A stretch of 34,551 nt of DNA from a virus (taxonomy: Duplodnaviria; Heunggongvirae; Uroviricota; Caudoviricetes). Under the pieces are notes generated by a model. That model did no database searches, had not been told where the DNA came from, and was given only the letters and a program-made list of their open reading frames with translations. A program made the position numbers and the translations under genes. This document shows, in pieces, positions 4,085 through 14,145 of this stretch (within the stretch, counting starts at the first letter, position 1; every line of letters begins with the position of its first letter). The stretch is taken from positions 1 to 34,551 of IMG/VR virus record IMGVR_UViG_2778261031_000007; one strand, given 5' to 3'.

Positions 4085-4206
4085 GAAACCAGAACATGCA
4101 CACACAAAAAAACCGCTTGCCATGCCGCAATCGGTCAGGTTACATTTCCGCTGCACCTCATAAAACGGGTGCCGGGATTCTCAACCCGATACAGAGCAAA
4201 GCGCAT

Positions 4207-4227
4207 AACCGCGCCAGCGGTTTTTTT
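4207..4227 (+). terminator. Intrinsic terminator (AACCGC-GCCA-GCGGTT then T7)
   Basis: Perfect 6-bp GC-rich stem, 4-nt loop, run of 7 T. Confidence 0.5.
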
Positions 4228-4239
4228 GTGCGTACTGTA

Positions 4240-4268
4240 TTGCCACGTCTTTTTCGCGTCAGAATTAT
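4240..4268 (+). promoter_or_regulatory. Candidate sigma70 promoter for the replication module (TTGCCA-N17-AATTAT)
   Basis: -35/-10-like hexamers with 17-bp spacing, followed by a structured leader with a UUCG-loop hairpin (4285-4298) and an 8-bp inverted repeat GTTGAGAA/TTCTCAAC (4321-4361). Confidence 0.3.
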
Positions 4269-4406
4269 GGCGGGGCGTACGGGGCCGACTTCGGTCGGGC
4301 CGGATTCTTTGCTCTCCGGTGTTGAGAACCCTGTACGTCTCGCCACCCCGAGATTCTCAACTCTGGATGGTGAGCTATTTCTATCACCGAGCAAAGAGGC
4401 CACACC

Positions 4407-4709: not shown

Positions 4710-5099
4710 ATGATTGACGCTCATGACTTCACAAGATGGGTGCGCACACAGGACACCCGTCTGGCTCCCGTTCTTCAGGGATTATTTGATCTCTACATCC
4801 GTGGTCGTGACAACAGAGCACGCACCACAAAACCGGAGAATGCAGACACCCTTTATTTCACAGTAGACGACTGCTACCGCGTGGACTTCACACCACACGG
4901 GCTGGCGTTGCACTGCCTGACACCACACGGAGAATCACTGCTGGCGTATTACGACTCCCCGGCCTCCGTATTTGCGGCAATGCTGGCGCATCGCACTGCT
5001 GGCGGGTGTGCCTCGCTGAGTGAATACACCGCTGAATTTAACCGCCTTTCTGCCCTCTTCTCGCAGGAGTGGCAGCGCGTGACGGGATACCAGCCATGA
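4710..5099 (+). CDS. Hypothetical protein (129 aa)
   Basis: ATG 4710; stop overlaps start of A (ATGA at 5096-5099). Confidence 0.5.
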   Translation: MIDAHDFTRWVRTQDTRLAPVLQGLFDLYIRGRDNRARTTKPENADTLYFTVDDCYRVDFTPHGLALHCLTPHGESLLAYYDSPASVFAAMLAHRTAGGCASLSEYTAEFNRLSALFSQEWQRVTGYQP

Positions 5100-7906
5100 A
5101 TGAGTTTGCATGGAGCTGGAATGAACCACGGCCAGCCATTGATCCGGCCAGATTTACGGAGCACAGGCAGGAAACTGAAACCGACCTGCAACGCGCCATC
5201 CGTTACTACCTTGAGGCAGACAAAAAGGCTCTGGAAGAACAGGAAGCGAAGGAGGAAGCCTTTTTCGCACAATCCACCGTGGGTAAAAAACTCATGGCAT
5301 CCCTTGAGGAAGCCGGACAGCGTGAAAAGCTGGCACAAAGCATCATCAGCAAGCGTCAGGCAACAGAACAAGACCCGGTGGCCCGTGCTTTTGCCACACT
5401 GAAGGTGCTTCCCGTTTATCTGCGTGAACCTCTGAGCCGCCACCTCTCTTTCCTGCGCAAAAAACAGGAAGCCGATCGCCAGAAAGGCAAAAAGAGCTGG
5501 CAGGCTGAACGCTACGCGCGCGGAACCCTGCGCAAAATATTCGAACGTCTGGACCGCACCGATCACCGCTGGCTGACACCGGGTTATCGCTCCCTTGCCG
5601 GACGCGAACGCCTGGACGATTTGCTTTACCTGCCGCAGCTCAACAAACACCAGATACAGACGCTGGCCACCATGACGGCGGCGATGTTCAGCAGCACCTT
5701 CGAAAAACTCTGCGATGGCTTTGGCGCGACTGATGGCGAACTGACCATGGATGTAACGCTGAAGGCGTATCAGATGCTGGCCCGCATGGCGTTACACCTG
5801 CACGCCATGCCTCCACATTATGACGCACTGACAACAGACAAAGACCGGAGGAACGAACCGGACACGGAGCTGCTGCCGGGCGCAATCCTTCGCCTGACCT
5901 GTGCAGAATGGTGGAAACGCAAACTGTGGCTGTTACGTTGCGAGTGGAGAGAAGAACAACTCCGCGCCGCCTGTCTGGTTTCCAGAAAAACATCGCCCTA
6001 TCTGAGCCAGGACGCGTTAAGCGAGTTTCGCGCACAGCGCGAGAAAACACGCGATTTCCTGAAAAGTTTCATGCTGGAAAATGAAGACGGGTTCACGATT
6101 GATCTCGAGACGGTGTATTACGCGGGAGTAAGTAACCCGGTTCACCGTAAGGCAGAAATGATGGCCACCATGAAGGGGCTGGAACTTCTGGCCGAAGCCC
6201 GTGGCGACAAAGCGGTGTTTCTGACTGTCACCTGCCCGTCAAAATACCACGCCACAACAGAGAACGGTCATCCGAATCCCAAATGGAACGGGGCCACCAT
6301 GCGCGACTCCAGCGATTATCTGGTTAACACGTTTTTTGCGGCGGTCCGCAAAAAACTGAACCGCGACGGCCTGCGCTGGTATGGCATCCGCACGGTGGAG
6401 CCTCACCATGACGGCACCGTGCACTGGCATATGATGGTCTTTGCTCATCCGGAAGAAATCGACAGCATCGTGGCCATCACCCGCGATATTGCCATTCAGG
6501 AAGACCGCCACGAGCTGGGCAATGATATTACTCCGCGCTTTAAGGTGGAGTATGTCGACGGCTCCAAAGGCACACCAACCAGCTATATCGCGACCTACAT
6601 CGGAAAAAACCTGGACAGCCGCGCCGTGGATGGCATCGACCCGAAAACGGGCAAGCCACGCGTTGACCACGAAACCGGAAAATCAATGGCCGAGAGTGTG
6701 GAACGCGCCATCGGCTGGGCGCGCCTTCACCGGGTCCGCCAGTTCCAGTTCTTTGGCATCCCCTCCCGTCAGGTATGGCGTGAACTCCGCCGCCTTGCCA
6801 GCCAGATGGCACGCAACCCGGAAGGCCCGCAACGGCTGAAGGATGATGCAATGGATGCGGTACTCGCTGCCGCTGATGCCGGGTGTTTTGCCACCTACAT
6901 TGAGAAACAGGGCGGCGTACTTGTTCCACGCAAAGACTACCTGATTCGCACCGCCTACGACCTCGCAGATGAGCTGAACGATTACGGCGAACAGAGCGTA
7001 CAGATTTACGGGATCTGGTCACCACTCATCGGGGAATCCTCCCGTGTGTGCACGCACCCGGATAACTGGAAGCTGGTAAGACGTAAACCGGAAGCGGAAG
7101 ACAGCACCCGCGAAAATGGTTTTGACCTTCAGGGCGGCCCTGCCGCCCCTTGGACTCGTGGCAATAACTGTCCCCGTGTACAGGAAACGGACAACAACGG
7201 GACAGAACAGCCGGAAGAACGGCCAGCACCGTGGCCGCAGCTCCCTGACGGCGTTGAAGTGAACGAATGGATGCGCTCACTGAAACGGCACGAACGCCGG
7301 GCGCTGATGCGTTCGCTTCGTGACAAACAGGCAAAAAACAGCAGTGATGAAATGCAGAGCTGGACACAGAGCCGCAAACAGCAGCGGCCTTTGCCTGATA
7401 ACCACGAATTACTCGCTAGAGAATGGCGGGAGTCTGCTGAATCTCTCGGCCTGCATATCGGTGAACAACAAATGCAGCACCTGTTACGGGGCGGCAGTCT
7501 GTACGTTGACGGCAGCATCATTGCACCGCAGGGATTTGAAATTGTACGCAAACCGGATACCCGCCCGGACAGCCGAATCACGCAGCTCTGGCAGCGCCTG
7601 AGCCGTAATCACGGTGTAAGCAGCACGGAGATCCGCCATAACCCGGTCGCCAGCTATCTGGCACAGCTGGGGGCATCAGACCCTGAAGCGGCCACACGCC
7701 TGGCATCCACACTTCAGCAGGACCAGAACACCATGAAAACACCCGTTACCGTGCTTTCTGACATGCTGCGCGCCATCCGCGACGCAGAGCACGCACAGAG
7801 AATCAGTGAAACCACTGAACGTGCCCGCCGCAAAGCAGACCTGCTGCGGGGTGGCCTGACCAGTGGAAACAAAAACAGACAGAAACGGGATTCACAAATC
7901 CCGTAA
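5096..7906 (+). CDS. A: Replication initiator A (rolling-circle HUH endonuclease, P2 gpA-like)
   Basis: VEPHHDGTVHWHMMVF HUH motif and N-terminal AWSWNEPR match recalled P2 gpA; start set at ATG 5096 (coupled to upstream gene), alternative GTG at 5069. Confidence 0.9.
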   Translation: MNEFAWSWNEPRPAIDPARFTEHRQETETDLQRAIRYYLEADKKALEEQEAKEEAFFAQSTVGKKLMASLEEAGQREKLAQSIISKRQATEQDPVARAFATLKVLPVYLREPLSRHLSFLRKKQEADRQKGKKSWQAERYARGTLRKIFERLDRTDHRWLTPGYRSLAGRERLDDLLYLPQLNKHQIQTLATMTAAMFSSTFEKLCDGFGATDGELTMDVTLKAYQMLARMALHLHAMPPHYDALTTDKDRRNEPDTELLPGAILRLTCAEWWKRKLWLLRCEWREEQLRAACLVSRKTSPYLSQDALSEFRAQREKTRDFLKSFMLENEDGFTIDLETVYYAGVSNPVHRKAEMMATMKGLELLAEARGDKAVFLTVTCPSKYHATTENGHPNPKWNGATMRDSSDYLVNTFFAAVRKKLNRDGLRWYGIRTVEPHHDGTVHWHMMVFAHPEEIDSIVAITRDIAIQEDRHELGNDITPRFKVEYVDGSKGTPTSYIATYIGKNLDSRAVDGIDPKTGKPRVDHETGKSMAESVERAIGWARLHRVRQFQFFGIPSRQVWRELRRLASQMARNPEGPQRLKDDAMDAVLAAADAGCFATYIEKQGGVLVPRKDYLIRTAYDLADELNDYGEQSVQIYGIWSPLIGESSRVCTHPDNWKLVRRKPEAEDSTRENGFDLQGGPAAPWTRGNNCPRVQETDNNGTEQPEERPAPWPQLPDGVEVNEWMRSLKRHERRALMRSLRDKQAKNSSDEMQSWTQSRKQQRPLPDNHELLAREWRESAESLGLHIGEQQMQHLLRGGSLYVDGSIIAPQGFEIVRKPDTRPDSRITQLWQRLSRNHGVSSTEIRHNPVASYLAQLGASDPEAATRLASTLQQDQNTMKTPVTVLSDMLRAIRDAEHAQRISETTERARRKADLLRGGLTSGNKNRQKRDSQIP

Positions 7907-8011: not shown

Positions 8012-8971
8012 ATGAAAATTTGTATCGACGACGGCTCCACCAACATCAAGCTGGCATGGACTGAGAACGGCGAACGCCGCAACGCCATCAGCCCGAACAG
8101 CTTCAAGTCGGAATGGTCTGCGCCGTTCGGTGGCACGCATCCCGCGAACTACATGCTTGATGGCGTGCGCTATGGCTTTGATCCGGTCAGCGATCGCTTT
8201 GTCCAGACGACTGACACGCAATACCAGTACAGCGATGTGAATGTAATCGCCATTCATCACGCGCTGGTCAAATCAGGCATCACACCACAGGAAGTGGATG
8301 TGGTTGTCACCCTGCCACTGAGCGAGTATTTCGACACAAACGCACAGCCGGACATGGCCAACATCAACCGCAAAAAAGCGAACGTCATGCGCCCAGTGGA
8401 GTACCAGAACGGCGAAGCATTCACTATCCGTAACGTACGGGTTATGCCTGAATCCATTCCGGCTGGCTTTAAAGCACTGGCTGACATGAGTCCGTTTGAA
8501 TCCCTGCTGATTGTGGATTTAGGCGGAACCACGCTGGATGTGGCAAAGGTTCAGGGACAACTGGCAGGTATCAGCCAGGTGTTTTGCGATCCACACGTAG
8601 GCGTTTCTCTGATGGCCGATGCCGTACTGTCGGTGATGGCCACTAACGGTATGCGCACCAGTCACCACATCGCCAATACCATTATCGAACATCGCCATGA
8701 TGAAGCCTGGCTGCGCCAGCACATCCACAATGACGCGCATTACGCCAGCCTGATGGCGGTTATTCGTGAAAAGGAAGAAACACTGAAACAACGCGTGATC
8801 CGCGCGCTGGCGGGTTTTTCGGGTTACGGGCGGGTGATGGTTGTCGGTGGAGGGGCGGAGATTGTGGCACCCGCTATCCGCGAAGCCTGCGGAGTTAATG
8901 CGACTTTCATCGCGGACGGGGTGCCACAGTTTGCTCTGGTTAATGGGCTGTACGCAATGGACAAGGAGTAA
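8012..8971 (+). CDS. parM: ParM/StbA-type actin-like segregation ATPase
   Basis: 319 aa; IDDGSTNIKL, ISPNSFK, QYSDVNV, VHHAL, VMPESIPAG, DLGGTTLD, GGGAE and LVNGLY motifs collinear with recalled R1 ParM. Confidence 0.85.
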   Translation: MKICIDDGSTNIKLAWTENGERRNAISPNSFKSEWSAPFGGTHPANYMLDGVRYGFDPVSDRFVQTTDTQYQYSDVNVIAIHHALVKSGITPQEVDVVVTLPLSEYFDTNAQPDMANINRKKANVMRPVEYQNGEAFTIRNVRVMPESIPAGFKALADMSPFESLLIVDLGGTTLDVAKVQGQLAGISQVFCDPHVGVSLMADAVLSVMATNGMRTSHHIANTIIEHRHDEAWLRQHIHNDAHYASLMAVIREKEETLKQRVIRALAGFSGYGRVMVVGGGAEIVAPAIREACGVNATFIADGVPQFALVNGLYAMDKE

Positions 8972-8975
8972 ACCA

Positions 8976-9287
8976 ATGACGACTCCAACCAGACGGATAA
9001 GTTTCTATCTGAAGCCCGCCGCCGTCAAGAACGAAGGCGAAGCATGCGCCTGGCTGGACAGCCTTACACCAGAAGCCCGCAAAAGCGGCCAACGCGTAGC
9101 TTTTCTGGCCGGGCTGGCACTTCTGAAAATGAATCCAGCAGAGGCTTACCGACTGGCTGCATGGGCTGACGATGAGGCGTTATCAGTGACACAAACCAGG
9201 ACAGAGCGCCCCTTGTCACAGCCAGTACCAACCGCACAGATAACCAGTCAGATGGCTGGGAATATCCGGGCGTTGTTTCCTGAATAA
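8976..9287 (+). CDS. ParR-like small DNA-binding adaptor (call by position and size)
   Basis: 103 aa starting 5 nt after parM stop with AAGGAG RBS; same size class and arrangement as ParR. Confidence 0.45.
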   Translation: MTTPTRRISFYLKPAAVKNEGEACAWLDSLTPEARKSGQRVAFLAGLALLKMNPAEAYRLAAWADDEALSVTQTRTERPLSQPVPTAQITSQMAGNIRALFPE

Positions 9288-9332: not shown

Positions 9333-9929
9333 TCAGAATTTAGTATGCAATTTATCTACCAATCGCTTAGCCTCATTAAGTAGTTTTTGGTATTCCCTGC
9401 TATCGTTTTCCTGATCTTCATACGCTCGCCGAACACGCCATCGAAGAGCAAGGCATTTTAAGTTCCGGTAAAACCTCGGATTACGCTTGCGGCACTCTTC
9501 CATATAAGGTTCAAAATGGACATCAAGAAAGATTAAGGTAGAACCATAAACACGATATAGATACCGCTCATCATACAAACCGTTATTCACGGCATTAGCA
9601 CAACGCTCCCACTCATTAAAAATGAGTTTTAATGCTTTTGCTCCATCCGTTTGAGAATATTCCTCTTTTCCCCAATCAGCGATCGGAAAGTTATGGCGAT
9701 CCTTATGAATACGTAGCACTTCTGACCACGCATCGACTATGTCCTTGTTACGTTTATATGCAGCCTCGAAATCCAACGAATTTTTTTCGCGCGACGTTTT
9801 TCTTTGATTTCGTATGCTAATCACTGCAATAAGCGCACCCGCAGCTCCTGGATAAAACGTAGGGCTGGATTCCCAAATACTGGAAAAAATTTTTCCTATA
9901 TAACTAAGGGCAGAAAGAACTAGATCCAT
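9333..9929 (-). CDS. Orphan membrane-anchored protein (198 aa), unknown function
   Basis: ORF with one N-terminal hydrophobic helix (PGAAGALIAVISI) and a charged soluble domain; visibly lower G+C than flanking phage genes. Confidence 0.7.
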   Translation of the reverse strand: MDLVLSALSYIGKIFSSIWESSPTFYPGAAGALIAVISIRNQRKTSREKNSLDFEAAYKRNKDIVDAWSEVLRIHKDRHNFPIADWGKEEYSQTDGAKALKLIFNEWERCANAVNNGLYDERYLYRVYGSTLIFLDVHFEPYMEECRKRNPRFYRNLKCLALRWRVRRAYEDQENDSREYQKLLNEAKRLVDKLHTKF

Positions 9930-9942
9930 TGTATTTAACCAT

Positions 9943-9965
9943 AAAAAATGGGAGCCAAAGCCCCC
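9943..9965 (-). terminator. Attenuator-like hairpin plus U-tract immediately upstream of the 198-aa gene
   Basis: Minus strand reads GGGGGCTTTGGCTCCC then ATTTTTTA, ending 14 nt before the ATG at 9929. Confidence 0.35.
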
Positions 9966-9997
9966 ATTCTACTGAAACTACTCTAAAAAAACAGGAG

Positions 9998-10042
9998 TTA
10001 AACGTCCCAGTTTTCTTCGCTATAGATGCGGCGTACGGTCAT
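9998..10042 (-). CDS. Candidate 14-codon leader peptide (MTVRRIYSEENWDV)
   Basis: AGAGGAG RBS 7 nt before ATG; lies directly upstream of the hairpin at 9943-9965. Confidence 0.25.
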   Translation of the reverse strand: MTVRRIYSEENWDV

Positions 10043-10379
10043 AGTTAGTCTCCTCTTTTCAATCATTTAAACATCACTAATTTACTTTTAACATGGAGAT
10101 GGTTTTACAGTTGTCAACCACCTCCCCCAAATCTGTTGGGGTAAGCTATCACGCCTACCATACACATACAATGATGAGGCTATATCGTGTAGTCACACCG
10201 ATAAGGATAAGTTCATCTTCTTCGCTGCCTTAATGTGACCAAATATAGCACATTTGAAGCGATATACATCCTGTAATGATACTGCACAATAGTGCACAAA
10301 TTTGCACAATTTTTTTGAACGACTTTTTGCCCTTCCGGCCCGCGTGGCGGCTGGATCCGTCAGGGATCCGTGCGTGCAC

Positions 10380-10403
10380 AAAAAAACGCGCTTTTTCTGC
10401 GCG
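10380..10403 (-). terminator. Candidate minus-strand intrinsic terminator (CGCGC stem, then U7 on minus strand)
   Basis: Plus strand AAAAAAA-CGCGC-TTTTTCT-GCGCG. Confidence 0.3.
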
Positions 10404-10405
10404 CA

Positions 10406-10424
10406 GGTGACGGGGGAACAGCCC
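10406..10424. other. Candidate cos-like element (GGTGACGGGGGAACAGCCC)
   Basis: About 12 of 18 positions match the recalled P2/186 cohesive end GGCGAGGCGGGGAAAGCA; lies on the expected side of the portal gene. Confidence 0.2.
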
Positions 10425-10808
10425 GCGTTTCAGGGGGTAAATAGCATTCCCTGAACGATGTCGCAGCGACACAACAGAATGGCTGTATCGCTCACGCTGA
10501 GCCTGAAAAAGACGTAAGGTGTTCTGATTTGATGGGATGAAAGGTAAGGCCGTCAAAATCGCACTGAGGCGGCGAGAACATGCAGTCAGCGCGGCGGGAT
10601 TGTGTAAGAGTCTGGCCGTCGATGATAGCGATAAGTCGGAAGACGTCGTGAAATTATCTGATTGATACAGGAGCTGGAGAGTCGGGGCATAAATTTTTTA
10701 TGCCCCGGCGAAGCAGCAGACAAGCGAAGCGCGTCAGTGATGCGGCACCTTGCCGACCACACTTCATAAGTGCAAAATACGAGCAAAGAAATCAATGGAG
10801 GCTGTTCT

Positions 10809-11333
10809 ATGGTCATTAATTACAAGCAGTTACGAGAAAAACGAGATCAGGTAAAGGAGAGTTTTCGCCGCAATGAAGACCTGACCCCGCTTGTACGCAT
10901 TGCCCAGGGAATTGTTGATGCTTATGAAATCTCTCTGGAGCTGCCATCACAGACATGGACGGATAGCGACGGTAATCGCCAGCATTACGTTTCATGCGGA
11001 CTGGAAACGGCTGAAGGGTTTCGCAGAATGCCTTTATCTCAGATTCCTGCCGCTACCCCCAAAGCAAGGGGCGGCAATGATGAGCGAAAACTGATTTTCA
11101 GCATTGAGACAGTGGTTGACGACACACCTGGCGAAGTCGCCTTCGTGCATACTCCTCTTTCGATCGCAATGTATAACGATGAAATACAGGTTCGCGTTAA
11201 TAATAATATCGTGCCACTTAAAGAAGGTAATTCACCATACACCACCGTTTGTGAAGCCATTCAATATTACGTTCTCTCTGAAATTGATAATCTCAAGCCT
11301 GACGGCACCCAGAAAATGGTTCAACTCTGGTAA
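10809..11333 (+). CDS. Orphan protein (174 aa), unknown function
   Basis: GGAGG RBS at 10797-10801 with ATG at 10809 (track ORF starts at upstream GTG 10770); followed by a strong terminator. Confidence 0.65.
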   Translation: MVINYKQLREKRDQVKESFRRNEDLTPLVRIAQGIVDAYEISLELPSQTWTDSDGNRQHYVSCGLETAEGFRRMPLSQIPAATPKARGGNDERKLIFSIETVVDDTPGEVAFVHTPLSIAMYNDEIQVRVNNNIVPLKEGNSPYTTVCEAIQYYVLSEIDNLKPDGTQKMVQLW

Positions 11334-11338
11334 AAAGG

Positions 11339-11364
11339 ACAGCCCCATCACGGGGCTGTTTTTT
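11339..11364. terminator. Bidirectional terminator shared by the 174-aa gene and portal gene
   Basis: CAGCCCC-ATCAC-GGGGCTG then T6; portal stop codon lies in the loop. Confidence 0.6.
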
Positions 11365-12394
11365 CATCAAGAAGAGCATAAGAATTAAAACGGATCACCT
11401 CTTCGCCAAGCCAGTCATTGATGTGCTTCATGGCCTCCATAACGGGCATCAGCTCGTTAATTGCGTAAACCCGCGCGGCCTTTTCCACATCACCAAACGC
11501 ACTTTTTTCACCCGGCATCGCCCCCATCAGTTGCGGCGGAACGCGGTGCGCAGCCAGCACATCATCACGGGATGCCGCCTTAACATTCATGAACTCATCC
11601 TTTGCGGTGATCTGCTGGAACGGCAAAATTTGCACACCTTCTTTGCCCCCGTTGGGCGCATGAATGAGCACGTTTTTAAACGCACCACCACCACGTGCAC
11701 CCTGTAGCGTTTCTTTCAGGGAGTCCATGCTTTCGCGGTTTACCTGCGCTGCACCGATGTAGATGATACACCCGGCGTGGGATCCGTTGTCGTAATACAG
11801 TTTTCTGAACATGTCCGCCGAATGAGACAGGCTGGCCGAGAGTAATGCGCCGAGATATTCCGGCATGCCGTAGATTTCCTGGTTAATGTCAGGATTCATC
11901 AGGTGGCACACTTTGCCAGGGCGAAACTGAAACGCGTCCTTACCATCCTGCACATACCACCATGATTCAAGATCGCTTCCGCGTCGCATGTATTTCGCCA
12001 GGGCGTGCCGTAATTTAAGCGGTTCGCCGAGCATATTGCTTCGAAGCTCAAGGAATGCGTTACCGAACACAAACCAGTCCAGCGCCAGCGCCGAGAAATC
12101 CTGCCGGGAAAGCAGCGGGTGCGGAATATAGCAACCGAGCAATACATTGCGCTTAAAGTAAAGCGCAGACTGATGCCAGGACGTTTGCCGGGCCGCTCTT
12201 GCCAGACCGTACCAGTCCACCGGGGTTTCATACCACCGCCCGTTATCAGCACAGTACATATTGTCCAGCAGGTCATGCCCGGTCAGGCGATAAGGACCAT
12301 CAAATGTGAATGCACTGAGCGATGATTCTTTCCTGAGCGCATCAGCGAGATCAATGCGTGAACTCATGCGCACTTTTTTATTTTTTCTGCTCAT
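11348..12394 (-). CDS. Q: Portal protein (gpQ)
   Basis: 348 aa; SAFTFDGPYRLTGHDLLDNMYCADNGRWYETPVDWYGLA matches recalled P2 gpQ. Confidence 0.95.
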   Translation of the reverse strand: MSRKNKKVRMSSRIDLADALRKESSLSAFTFDGPYRLTGHDLLDNMYCADNGRWYETPVDWYGLARAARQTSWHQSALYFKRNVLLGCYIPHPLLSRQDFSALALDWFVFGNAFLELRSNMLGEPLKLRHALAKYMRRGSDLESWWYVQDGKDAFQFRPGKVCHLMNPDINQEIYGMPEYLGALLSASLSHSADMFRKLYYDNGSHAGCIIYIGAAQVNRESMDSLKETLQGARGGGAFKNVLIHAPNGGKEGVQILPFQQITAKDEFMNVKAASRDDVLAAHRVPPQLMGAMPGEKSAFGDVEKAARVYAINELMPVMEAMKHINDWLGEEVIRFNSYALLDEKTAP

Positions 12395-14145
12395 CAGAAC
12401 TCCATAACCGTGAAACGCTCGTTTTCTCCTTCGCCGCCAATCGGTTCGTTAATGACAGCAAGCATGGTTGCCCACGCAAGGTCGCCGTGGCTGATCCCCC
12501 TCGCGCGGTCCGTTTCGTAAGTGATAAAGCCGCCCGGTGTTTTCACCTTACGCACGGCGTTAAAGGCTGCGACCAGCTCGCGTTCGGCGCGATCGTATTC
12601 CCACCGCCCGGCGCGCATTATTTGCAGCATTTTCAGTACCAGCGACCGTTTTGATGACAGCGTGAAGGTGTACGGAATAGCAGCAGGGAAAAACCGTTTC
12701 ACTATCTGATAAACAGCCTCCCCGTTCCCGCCCGTCACATCAATGCCGATGTGTTCCACGTTGTAGCGATACGTGAACTCTTCAATGACTCTGGCCTGTT
12801 CTTCAAACTCCAGCCCCTGAACGCGTCGCGTCTCCACCGTTCGAAAACGGCCACCAGGAACAGCCGGAGGAGCCACCACAGACACAGCGCCGCTGTCGCC
12901 GTTGCCACTGCTGCCGTTTGCGTCATACCCAATCCATACCGGACGATTTCCCATCGGGCGGGGAGCAAAAGGTTTCCAGTCTTTCCAGTCGTCGTATCCG
13001 TCAACGCCGCAGCCAATCAGGATGTTCAGGTTAAATGCCGATTCCCCTTCGCGGACAAACTCACACATGTAGAGATTGAGGAACTCGTCTTCGGTGTTTT
13101 CATCACGGATTTCGTCAATATCGGTGTGTTTCCAGCCGTGATTAACCACATCTTCCAGCGTGACAATCTGCCGCCACGTCCGGTCAGGGCAGATAAGCCC
13201 GTTATGCAGCGTTTTCCAGTCCACAGAAAAACGCTGGCGTTTATGCGTGGCCTTTTTCTCGTTCCAGCGGTCGCCGTTCCAGTAGGCGTATGCCTCGTGC
13301 GTTTCGGTGGATGGCGTGGAGAAGTAGGTGCGCCGCAGTCCGCTGAGGGTTGCCATAGCGCCAGCCACCTTGCGCAGTTCAGCAAAGCGACTGACCCAGA
13401 AAAATTCATCAAAATAAAAATTGCCCGTATAGGACTGTGCCGACGCAGCAGAAGTGCCGAGAAAATGCAGCTCTGCGCCGTTGGAGAGGATGATTTTATC
13501 ACCCCCTTTCAGCTCCACATCAACTTCAGCCGCGGCCTTCTGAATAATGCTTTTAAACTGGAACGCCTGACGACGCGACGCAGACAAAAAAATCTGGTTA
13601 CGCTGGTAAGGTTGCGCCACATCGTCACGCAGCGCCATCAGCAGTGCTTCCTGTGCAAAATACCAGGTCGCCCCAATCTGTCGGGATTTCAGGATCATCC
13701 TGTTACGTATCCCGGCTTCCCTGCAAAGGGTCAGGGAGTCAAACCAGCCTTGCTGATGCCACTCCAGCCTGCTGATGATTTTTTCCCGCAGTGCGGCAAT
13801 CTGTTCCGGCGTGAAATGATTTTTGAGTTTTTTCGCCCGGCCTTTCTTTCCTGCGGCCATCACATCCGGCTGGCCATCATGCAGCTTTTTAAGCTGCCGG
13901 GTCAGCAGGTCTATTTCCTTAAAGTCACCGCCTGTTTTATTCTGTTTTTCAGTAAGCTGGATGAGGCGCGCATCAATGGACTGCGTGACACGCTGCACGG
14001 GTGGCGTTTCATCCCACTGGTCGCGTTTTTTCCACGCATAAATCGTGTTCGGGTTTATTCCCATCAGACGTGATATTTCTGCGGGCGGATAACCCTGCCA
14101 GTAAAGTTGCCGCGCACGCTGGCGCACAAAAGCGTCCTGAATCAT
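12394..14145 (-). CDS. P: Terminase large (ATPase) subunit (gpP)
   Basis: 583 aa, immediately upstream of portal and overlapping its start, as in P2. Confidence 0.93.
   Translation of the reverse strand: MIQDAFVRQRARQLYWQGYPPAEISRLMGINPNTIYAWKKRDQWDETPPVQRVTQSIDARLIQLTEKQNKTGGDFKEIDLLTRQLKKLHDGQPDVMAAGKKGRAKKLKNHFTPEQIAALREKIISRLEWHQQGWFDSLTLCREAGIRNRMILKSRQIGATWYFAQEALLMALRDDVAQPYQRNQIFLSASRRQAFQFKSIIQKAAAEVDVELKGGDKIILSNGAELHFLGTSAASAQSYTGNFYFDEFFWVSRFAELRKVAGAMATLSGLRRTYFSTPSTETHEAYAYWNGDRWNEKKATHKRQRFSVDWKTLHNGLICPDRTWRQIVTLEDVVNHGWKHTDIDEIRDENTEDEFLNLYMCEFVREGESAFNLNILIGCGVDGYDDWKDWKPFAPRPMGNRPVWIGYDANGSSGNGDSGAVSVVAPPAVPGGRFRTVETRRVQGLEFEEQARVIEEFTYRYNVEHIGIDVTGGNGEAVYQIVKRFFPAAIPYTFTLSSKRSLVLKMLQIMRAGRWEYDRAERELVAAFNAVRKVKTPGGFITYETDRARGISHGDLAWATMLAVINEPIGGEGENERFTVMEF

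Follow-up and report, generated by a model that had tools for sequence, protein, structure and literature searches.

A 174-codon open reading frame (ORF) stands beside the portal gene in IMG/VR record IMGVR_UViG_2778261031_000007, a stretch of 34,551 nucleotides that was analysed at its full length and that we call the window. The window is a P88-type prophage of Escherichia coli (Xuanwuvirus, Peduoviridae, P2-like), and the ORF lies between its homologues of gpA (5069-7906) and gpQ, the portal gene (11348-12394). Sequence comparisons indicate that the ORF at 10809-11333 is a real coding gene under strong purifying selection. It belongs to a cassette that is dispensable for the phage, and we are confident that it is a moron, an accessory gene, of P88-type prophages. 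Our best explanation overall, which we hold tentatively, is a moron on the Q side of cos, lying immediately downstream of the portal gene's stop codon, with a product that may be an exclusion factor. This places the gene in a known category, a moron in a known prophage hotspot, and not in a new kind of system.

A conserved gene with its own signals

The gene was compared with the allele of sequence type 131 (ST131) E. coli, which is 95% identical in nucleotides. The ratio of non-synonymous to synonymous substitution (dN/dS) was 0.074 (dN = 0.015, dS = 0.20). The N-terminus MVINYKQ is kept in all close homologues, and the ribosome-binding site (RBS), the N-terminus and the reading frame are preserved as far as Salmonella homologues at 60% identity. 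The original prediction, made from the letters of the window, had credited the gene with a good RBS and an ATG start, and we found the same signals (GGAGG at 10797-10801, ATG at 10809). Because MVINYKQ is conserved in all close homologues, we place the start at ATG 10809 and reject an upstream GTG at 10770. Many distant members of the same protein family, PHROG 5091, carry an in-frame upstream extension of 11-13 codons before a conserved M-x-I-T-Y start, for example MLIRLNHLEKG-M... and MNSFNNNKGRF-M... (L019, L021, L024, L056; P0030, P0034; others).

The gene was also said to end at a strong bidirectional terminator with the portal stop codon in its loop, and this description proved accurate. 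The hairpin spans 11339-11359, with stem arms at 11339-11346 and 11352-11359 and the loop ATCAC at 11347-11351. Its folding energy is -22.2 kcal/mol on the plus strand (z = -4.4) and -19.0 kcal/mol on the minus strand (z = -3.7). The TGA stop of the portal ORF (11348..12394, minus strand) reads as tca at 11348-11350 on the plus strand and lies inside the loop.

Upstream of the RBS is a putative sigma-70 promoter, TTGCCG-17 nt-CAAAAT (Table 1). The homologous loci of Salmonella keep TTGTCT-17-CAAAAT and GGAG, and the 190 bp upstream of the gene are otherwise largely diverged. The ORF is lower in guanine plus cytosine (GC) content (46.1%) than the portal gene (52.6%), the terminase gene (54.2%) and the whole window (52.9%).

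A present/absent cassette on the Q side of cos

An alignment with phage P88 showed 46 bp in place of 660 bp, with exact breakpoints at 10737/11398. Sequence is shared with P88 and P88_4B11 up to 10737 and resumes at 11398, within the portal gene. A relic of the P88 portal stop codon, TCA at 10734-10736, marks the left edge of the shared sequence. Within the 660-bp cassette are the putative promoter, the ORF and the terminator, together with a portal 3' end of another version. The 46 bp of P88 are its diverged last ~15 portal codons, about ...NPYALLDTQPTS* by hand translation. Two diverged alleles of the portal 3' end co-segregate with the presence or absence of the cassette (11348-11397 of the window versus 3452-3501 of L001). 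Therefore a recombination breakpoint lies inside the portal gene, and the C-terminal tail of the portal protein differs between carriers and non-carriers. As the 46 bp of P88 are a diverged allele of the portal end, homologous recombination with a more distant relative is the probable route by which the cassette was exchanged. Of its two crossovers, one would have fallen near the 3' end of the portal gene, within it, and one in the non-coding stretch adjoining cos.

How often the slot is filled was estimated from an empty-site query made of the two flanks; 1,072 E. coli genomes matched it over 80% or more of its length. A cassette match, defined as at least 80% of the cassette length at 90% or more nucleotide identity, was found in 397 genomes. 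Occupancy is thus ~37% (397 among the 1,072 genomes with the backbone), and ~63% of near-identical P88-type prophages are without the gene. We sampled 56 full-coverage rows at even steps down the ranking, and the slot spans took just two sizes, 784-788 bp when empty (36) and 1,401-1,402 bp with the cassette (20). The cos-Q slot is therefore a yes/no polymorphism and not a hypervariable site. One strain, E. coli TUM1886, has another, shorter arrangement of the slot (914-bp span, 44% query coverage).

Carriers of the cassette do not share one cargo on the gpA side of cos. It is a DUF4760 gene in the window, a ClpX-type zinc-finger protein plus a hypothetical protein in O145, a 280-amino-acid hypothetical protein plus DUF4760 in ST131 and other genes in 705R2. 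The cassette is therefore an independent module. The gene is missing from P2, 186, P88 and P88_4B11. P2 has only 167 bp with the tQ terminator, and no gene, between cosL (1-19) and Q (187-1221), and phage 186 is alike, which bears out the earlier statement that this cos-proximal position holds no such gene in P2. A packaging or structural protein common to P2-like phages, the identity that the original prediction had set against its own reading, is not what we found, as the gene is absent from P2, 186, P88 and ~63% of P88-type prophages.

The cassette adjoins a non-coding block (10283-10737) that is 91-94% identical across 16 Peduoviridae phage records, most of them P88-type, and that is conserved in part in the Salmonella locus L004. 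A search of the window for the P2 cos 19-mer with up to three mismatches found no match. Two weaker likenesses to P2 cos were found in the block (Table 1), and the P88_4B11 record begins at the equivalent of window position 10328. These are candidates only for the cos position of P88-type phages. All of them lie to the left of the cassette.

The same block holds four copies of TGCACAA within 10283-10381, at 10283, 10293 and 10303 (in 10-bp phase, followed by a T-run) and at 10375; the plus strand of the whole window has just seven. P88-type phages keep this part, and Salmonella L004 (5520-5552) keeps some of it. In the cos region it may act as an array of sites to which a protein binds, either terminase or a host factor. 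At 10683-10707 is a perfect hairpin, CGGGGCATAAA-TTT-TTTATGCCCCG (-28.9 kcal/mol, z = -6.6), with no flanking T-run on either side. It is kept in E. coli P88-type phages and not in Salmonella, and in the empty allele its equivalent lies ~30 bp past the portal stop codon.

Distribution of the gene and its family

The original prediction called the gene an orphan without a recognised family. That description was not borne out, although part of it stands: scans of the protein against Pfam, NCBIfam and PADLOC gave no family match. The protein does have a full-length match in PHROG 5091, whose 164 profile positions (1-164) align with residues 1-168 (E = 6.4e-66). This family carries no functional annotation, so that membership says nothing on mechanism. 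Contigs from E. coli and other Enterobacteriaceae carry the exact protein (778 contigs) and a near-identical variant (at least 1,000), and the cluster at 97% identity includes Yersinia enterocolitica. Cassette DNA is present in 397 of 5,426 complete E. coli genomes (~7%), always on the chromosome; carriers include O145, O111, O103 and ST131 E. coli. Among isolated phages, a tblastn search of 50,697 phage records found four carriers (vB_EcoM-705R2, vB_EcoM-569R5, PhiR44_2 and an ST131 P88-like phage). The same search with two distant family members returned only these four P88-type phages and one weak match.

In the search suggested with the original prediction, for the gene at the same position in related prophages, relatives at 56-62% identity were found in the cos-portal slot of both E. 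coli and Salmonella. They are convergent with the portal gene and abut it in another E. coli P2-like lineage (L059, 56% identity) and in Salmonella L004, L005 and L006 (60-62%), and each of these four loci has a different gpA-side cargo. The Salmonella portals are 74-75% identical in amino acids to the window portal, compared with 60-62% for the gene. These values are consistent with a gene that has co-diverged with its phage at about twice the non-synonymous rate of the portal gene.

A profile search of 1.84 billion cluster representatives gave 78 hits, of which ~60 are full-length, 155-175 amino acids long and 21-37% identical. All 67 aligned relatives match PHROG 5091, and conservation is full-length down to 21% identity. 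The 67 relatives gave no Pfam or NCBIfam domain and no PADLOC-DB match (best E = 0.009, one member). Named hosts are Escherichia, Salmonella, Yersinia, Trabulsiella, Xenorhabdus, Sodalis and Pectobacterium. A locus scan of genome contigs found two loci only, in Xenorhabdus and Yersinia, and a locus search of viral contigs with single distant family proteins found no match.

The relatives at 21-37% identity come from lambdoid, HK97-like and myovirus prophages of diverse Enterobacterales, where their slots are in the late operon or close to cos. The family gene was found after the Rz spanin gene and before HNH, TerS, TerL and portal genes; between antiterminator Q and holin; between a lysis cassette and a lambda-type Nu1/gpA terminase; between a nuclease gene and GP3_package/TerL; between the genes for a tail assembly chaperone and for the tape measure protein (L020 and L026, the slot of HK97 gene 15); between baseplate genes; and between an anti-repressor and a tail-fibre-like gene. 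A hairpin with a T-run lies within 110 nt 3' of the family gene in 16 of 19 loci. Of 272 other genes from these loci, taken as controls, 68 are followed by one (Fisher p = 3e-7). When near-duplicate loci were collapsed, a terminator-like hairpin followed the family gene in 13 of 15 (p = 2e-6).

Properties of the protein

The product has a mass of 19.8 kDa and a pI of 5.0 (family median 5.2) and is hydrophilic, with a grand average of hydropathy (GRAVY) of -0.49. Inspection by eye, without a predictor, showed neither a signal peptide nor a lipobox or transmembrane segment. An AlphaFold2 model built on the 67-sequence alignment has a mean predicted local distance difference test score (pLDDT) of 79.6 and a predicted TM-score (pTM) of 0.68. 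The predicted fold begins with a helical hairpin (5-22, 26-42), continues with an antiparallel sheet of about nine strands and ends with a C-terminal helix (145-159). L43 is invariant, and Y39, S42, L45, W50, G55, Y60, V61, F97 and T101 are nearly so; T101 is the first residue of a conserved T-V-V-D-D motif. A profile search of the PDB found nothing below E = 0.07. Sequence matches in the PDB to designed helical repeat proteins (E = 2.8e-7) were rejected as an artefact of summed scores, as the single repeats have E values of ~2-3. Acr, DarA and similar anti-defence proteins were also considered, and no sequence or fold similarity to a characterised inhibitor was found.

A model for the role of the gene

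Morons, as defined by Juhala and Hendrix (summarised in PMC3594210 together with the HK97 gp15 precedent), are recognised as extra DNA between conserved genes, absent from close relatives, that has its own terminator, its own promoter for expression from the repressed prophage, and a deviating GC content. The cassette shows the extra DNA, the terminator and the deviating GC, and it has a putative promoter. We consider the gene a moron because it lies in a present/absent cassette with its own terminator and lower GC, is under purifying selection, is independent of the gpA-side cargo and has relatives in several moron slots. At least five other architectures of temperate phages have a PHROG 5091 member in a classical moron slot.

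Based on these data, we propose a model for how the gene acts. Judging from the promoter footprint, it is rather likely that the gene is expressed from its own promoter in the lysogen: the weak sigma-70 promoter (TTGCCG-17-CAAAAT) would drive the gene in the repressed prophage, and the bidirectional terminator would insulate it from the convergent late P-Q operon. The ~20-kDa product, predicted to be a soluble and mildly acidic alpha/beta protein, would act by binding another protein rather than by catalysis; we regard binding as probable because the protein lacks a catalytic motif and the gene stands without a partner.

We suggest, with some reserve, that the role of the product may be that of a prophage-expressed, single-protein phage-exclusion factor which protects the lysogen, like P2 Tin and Fun or HK97 gp15. 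We favour exclusion because of the track record of the hotspot, the moron architecture and the precedents of Tin, Fun and gp15. The gpA-gpQ interval of P2-like phages is a published hotspot for anti-phage and accessory genes (PMC9122126; PMC13586616; bioRxiv 10.1101/2024.10.15.618418). Both old and tin sit in it, and 3 of 8 additional P2-hotspot systems that were cloned gave defence, as did more than one third of all systems tested (PMC9122126). In the accessible part of Table S5 of PMC9122126, the ST131 allele (WP_000236495) occurs at least 167 times and the window protein (WP_032152538) at least once, both as "hypothetical". The supplements of PMC9519451, a functional selection study, do not contain the gene, and none of the papers searched mentions the accessions or PHROG 5091.

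Several observations weigh against an exclusion factor expressed from the prophage. The putative promoter agrees with the consensus at 8 of 12 positions, which is below the threshold of our consensus scan, and was not called. None of the 67 PHROG 5091 members matches PADLOC, and the gene was not among the systems cloned and tested in PMC9122126, so it has no phenotype there. The model has no fold match in the PDB or BFVD, and hence no mechanism is supported. The family lies among phage genes in every locus examined, whereas defence cargo that is readily swapped less typically does so. Many relatives have the gene co-directional with late genes, so that it would be expressed during lytic growth too. 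Last, the slot has just two alleles and gene and portal have diverged together, unlike the rapid swapping of defence cargo reported for P2-like elements (PMC13586616, Moura de Sousa et al. 2026).

These last three observations also speak for the main rival, a counter-defence or phage-fitness factor. It would bind an immune sensor or effector of the host and neutralise it, or hide a late protein that such sensors detect, for example portal or terminase, to the benefit of the phage's own lytic cycle and not of the lysogen. In the loci examined the family is always among phage genes, and in the lambdoid, HK97-like and myovirus relatives it would be co-expressed with the late genes. This role would also fit with the long stay in one slot, without quick turnover, and with a small, acidic, soluble protein that has no enzymatic motif. 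However, the gene of P2-like phages is convergent with the late operon, and the footprint before it is of the sigma-70 type, not a late-promoter arrangement. A terminator directly after the gene, even within late operons, is a signature of prophage expression, and just two types of anti-defence system have been detected in P2-like elements (PMC13586616). We consider counter-defence somewhat less likely than exclusion, and more likely than the explanations that follow.

It is improbable that the gene is a lysogenic-conversion factor, one that changes host physiology or virulence (stress, metabolism, the animal host) and does not act on other phages. The moron architecture would suit this role, and the family member in L060 lies in the Rz-cos region, which is the position of lambda bor. 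Carriers include pathogenic O145, O111, O103 and ST131 E. coli, Salmonella and Yersinia, and the morons lambda bor, lom and SopE act on the host (PMC3594210). Nevertheless, the protein (GRAVY -0.49) has no signal peptide, lipobox or transmembrane segment that could be seen by eye. The family also occurs in the insect- or plant-associated Xenorhabdus, Sodalis and Pectobacterium, and thus a host-specific virulence role is unlikely. A type III effector in particular was rejected: the protein has a charged N-terminal helix, unlike type III secretion effectors, and the gene occurs in lineages, ST131 among them, that are not known to have a type III secretion system.

An accessory packaging or virion factor tied to cos, portal or terminase (in cos cleavage, portal function or the piracy of P4-type satellites) is very improbable. 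The family is repeatedly found near the genome end or packaging genes (cos-portal here and in L004, L006 and L059; Rz-HNH-TerS; Nu1/gpA; GP3_package/TerL), and the cassette brings its own version of the portal C-terminus. Yet P2, 186 and P88 are viable phages without the gene, and ~63% of near-identical P88-type prophages lack it as well. Other family members belong to tail modules or baseplate modules, or lie between Q and holin, and a gene with its own terminator in convergent orientation is at odds with stoichiometric co-expression with the portal. In addition, module boundaries next to cos are generic landing sites for morons.

A chance or decaying ORF without function, to which the want of a recognisable domain and of a published phenotype might point, is effectively refuted by the selection on the gene (dN/dS 0.074 at dS 0.20), full-length conservation to 21% identity in 67 aligned proteins, a confident enough predicted fold, the conserved RBS and promoter footprint and the 397 genomes that match the cassette.

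Whether by exclusion or by counter-defence, we give it close to an even chance that PHROG 5091 is a new single-protein effector of phage-phage or phage-host conflict with a fold unlike anything solved. If so, this effector has colonised cos-proximal and late-operon moron slots of P2-like, lambda-like, HK97-like and myovirus prophages across Enterobacterales, and is carried by ~7% of complete genomes of E. coli, among them those of ST131 and of major Shiga toxin-producing serogroups. At that frequency the gene is among the commonest uncharacterised cargo genes of E. coli P2-like prophages. As it is conserved, single and without a recognisable domain or fold, it is a cheap and well-defined candidate for defence and counter-defence screens. 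Our results also divide the gpA-gpQ "hotspot" into two compartments, a hypervariable one on the gpA side of cos and a slow yes/no slot between cos and Q, which bears on guilt-by-association predictions.

Features of the window

The coordinates of the gene, its signals and its neighbours are collected in Table 1.

Table 1. Features of the window in and around the cassette, with positions counted from the first letter of the window.
Feature	Position	Strand	Remarks
Reported ORF	10809..11333	+	174 amino acids; ATG 10809, TAA 11331-11333; PHROG 5091 member
RBS GGAGG	10797..10801	+	7 nt 5' of ATG; GGAG kept in Salmonella loci
Putative sigma-70 promoter TTGCCG-17 nt-CAAAAT	10750..10778	+	Conserved footprint
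Bidirectional intrinsic terminator	11332..11364	both	A-run, 8-bp GC-rich stem, 5-nt loop, T-run; common to convergent portal gene
Present/absent cassette, 660 bp	10738..11397		Promoter, ORF, terminator and alternative portal 3' end
Cassette-borne last ~16 portal codons	11348..11397	-	...NSYALLDEKTAP*
Conserved non-coding block	10283..10737		cos side of cassette; TGCACAA repeats and candidate cos
Candidate cos GGTGACGGGGGAACAGCCC	10406-10424		13/19 positions as in P2 cos; conserved in Salmonella L004
Second candidate cos ACTGAGGCGGCGAGAACAT	10563-10581		12/19 positions as in P2 cos
gpA-type replication protein gene	5069-7906
ParM/StbA-like and Plasmid_stab_B partition genes	8012-9287	+	Between gpA and cargo
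DUF4760 gene	9333-9929	-	198 amino acids; Pfam E = 1e-24; PHROG 2284; GC 41%
Stretch without convincing gene, ~880 bp	9930-10808
Portal gene	11348-12394	-	Convergent with reported ORF
Large terminase gene	12394-14145	-

The DUF4760 protein, part of the variable cargo on the gpA side of cos, has an apparent N-terminal hydrophobic segment (by eye) and no PADLOC match. The P2 hotspot table of Rousset et al. 2022 (PMC9122126), in its accessible part, lists DUF4760 at least 197 times. In some E. coli prophages with the same backbone, IS5 or IS1 insertions lie beside the DUF4760 gene. Rousset et al. report a partition system of the kind at 8012-9287 from about a quarter of P2-like phages, and suggest that it may permit maintenance like that of a plasmid. 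On the plus strand at 4153-4350, two Rfam matches score above the gathering threshold, the Hfq-binding RNA isrK (4153-4227) and the C4 antisense RNA (4263-4350). They form an immunity RNA pair of the P1/P7 type, here within a P2-like prophage.

Comparison with known systems

Like other cargo of the gpA-gpQ hotspot, the gene lies between gpA and gpQ homologues, is accessory and was probably exchanged by recombination. It differs from that cargo in its place on the Q side of cos, which is geneless in P2 and 186, in its bi-allelic slot, in its co-divergence with the portal gene and in the lack of a known defence domain.

P2 Tin and Fun are exclusion factors that are expressed from the lysogen and act without a partner gene. 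Like our gene, tin and fun (Z) are stand-alone prophage accessory genes of P2-like phages. There is no detectable homology, as tblastn of phages returned only the four cassette-bearing P88-type phages, and the positions differ: tin and old are on the gpA side of cos and Z/fun is in the tail region, whereas the window gene is on the Q side.

HK97 gp15, a superinfection-exclusion protein and the founding moron, is an inner-membrane protein related to YebO (PMC3594210), whereas the window protein is soluble and acidic, with no visible transmembrane segment and no sequence similarity to gp15. In architecture the two are alike, each a small single gene in the late region with its own terminator, a promoter footprint, patchy presence and deviating GC, and the PHROG 5091 members in L020 and L026 occupy the exact slot of gp15.
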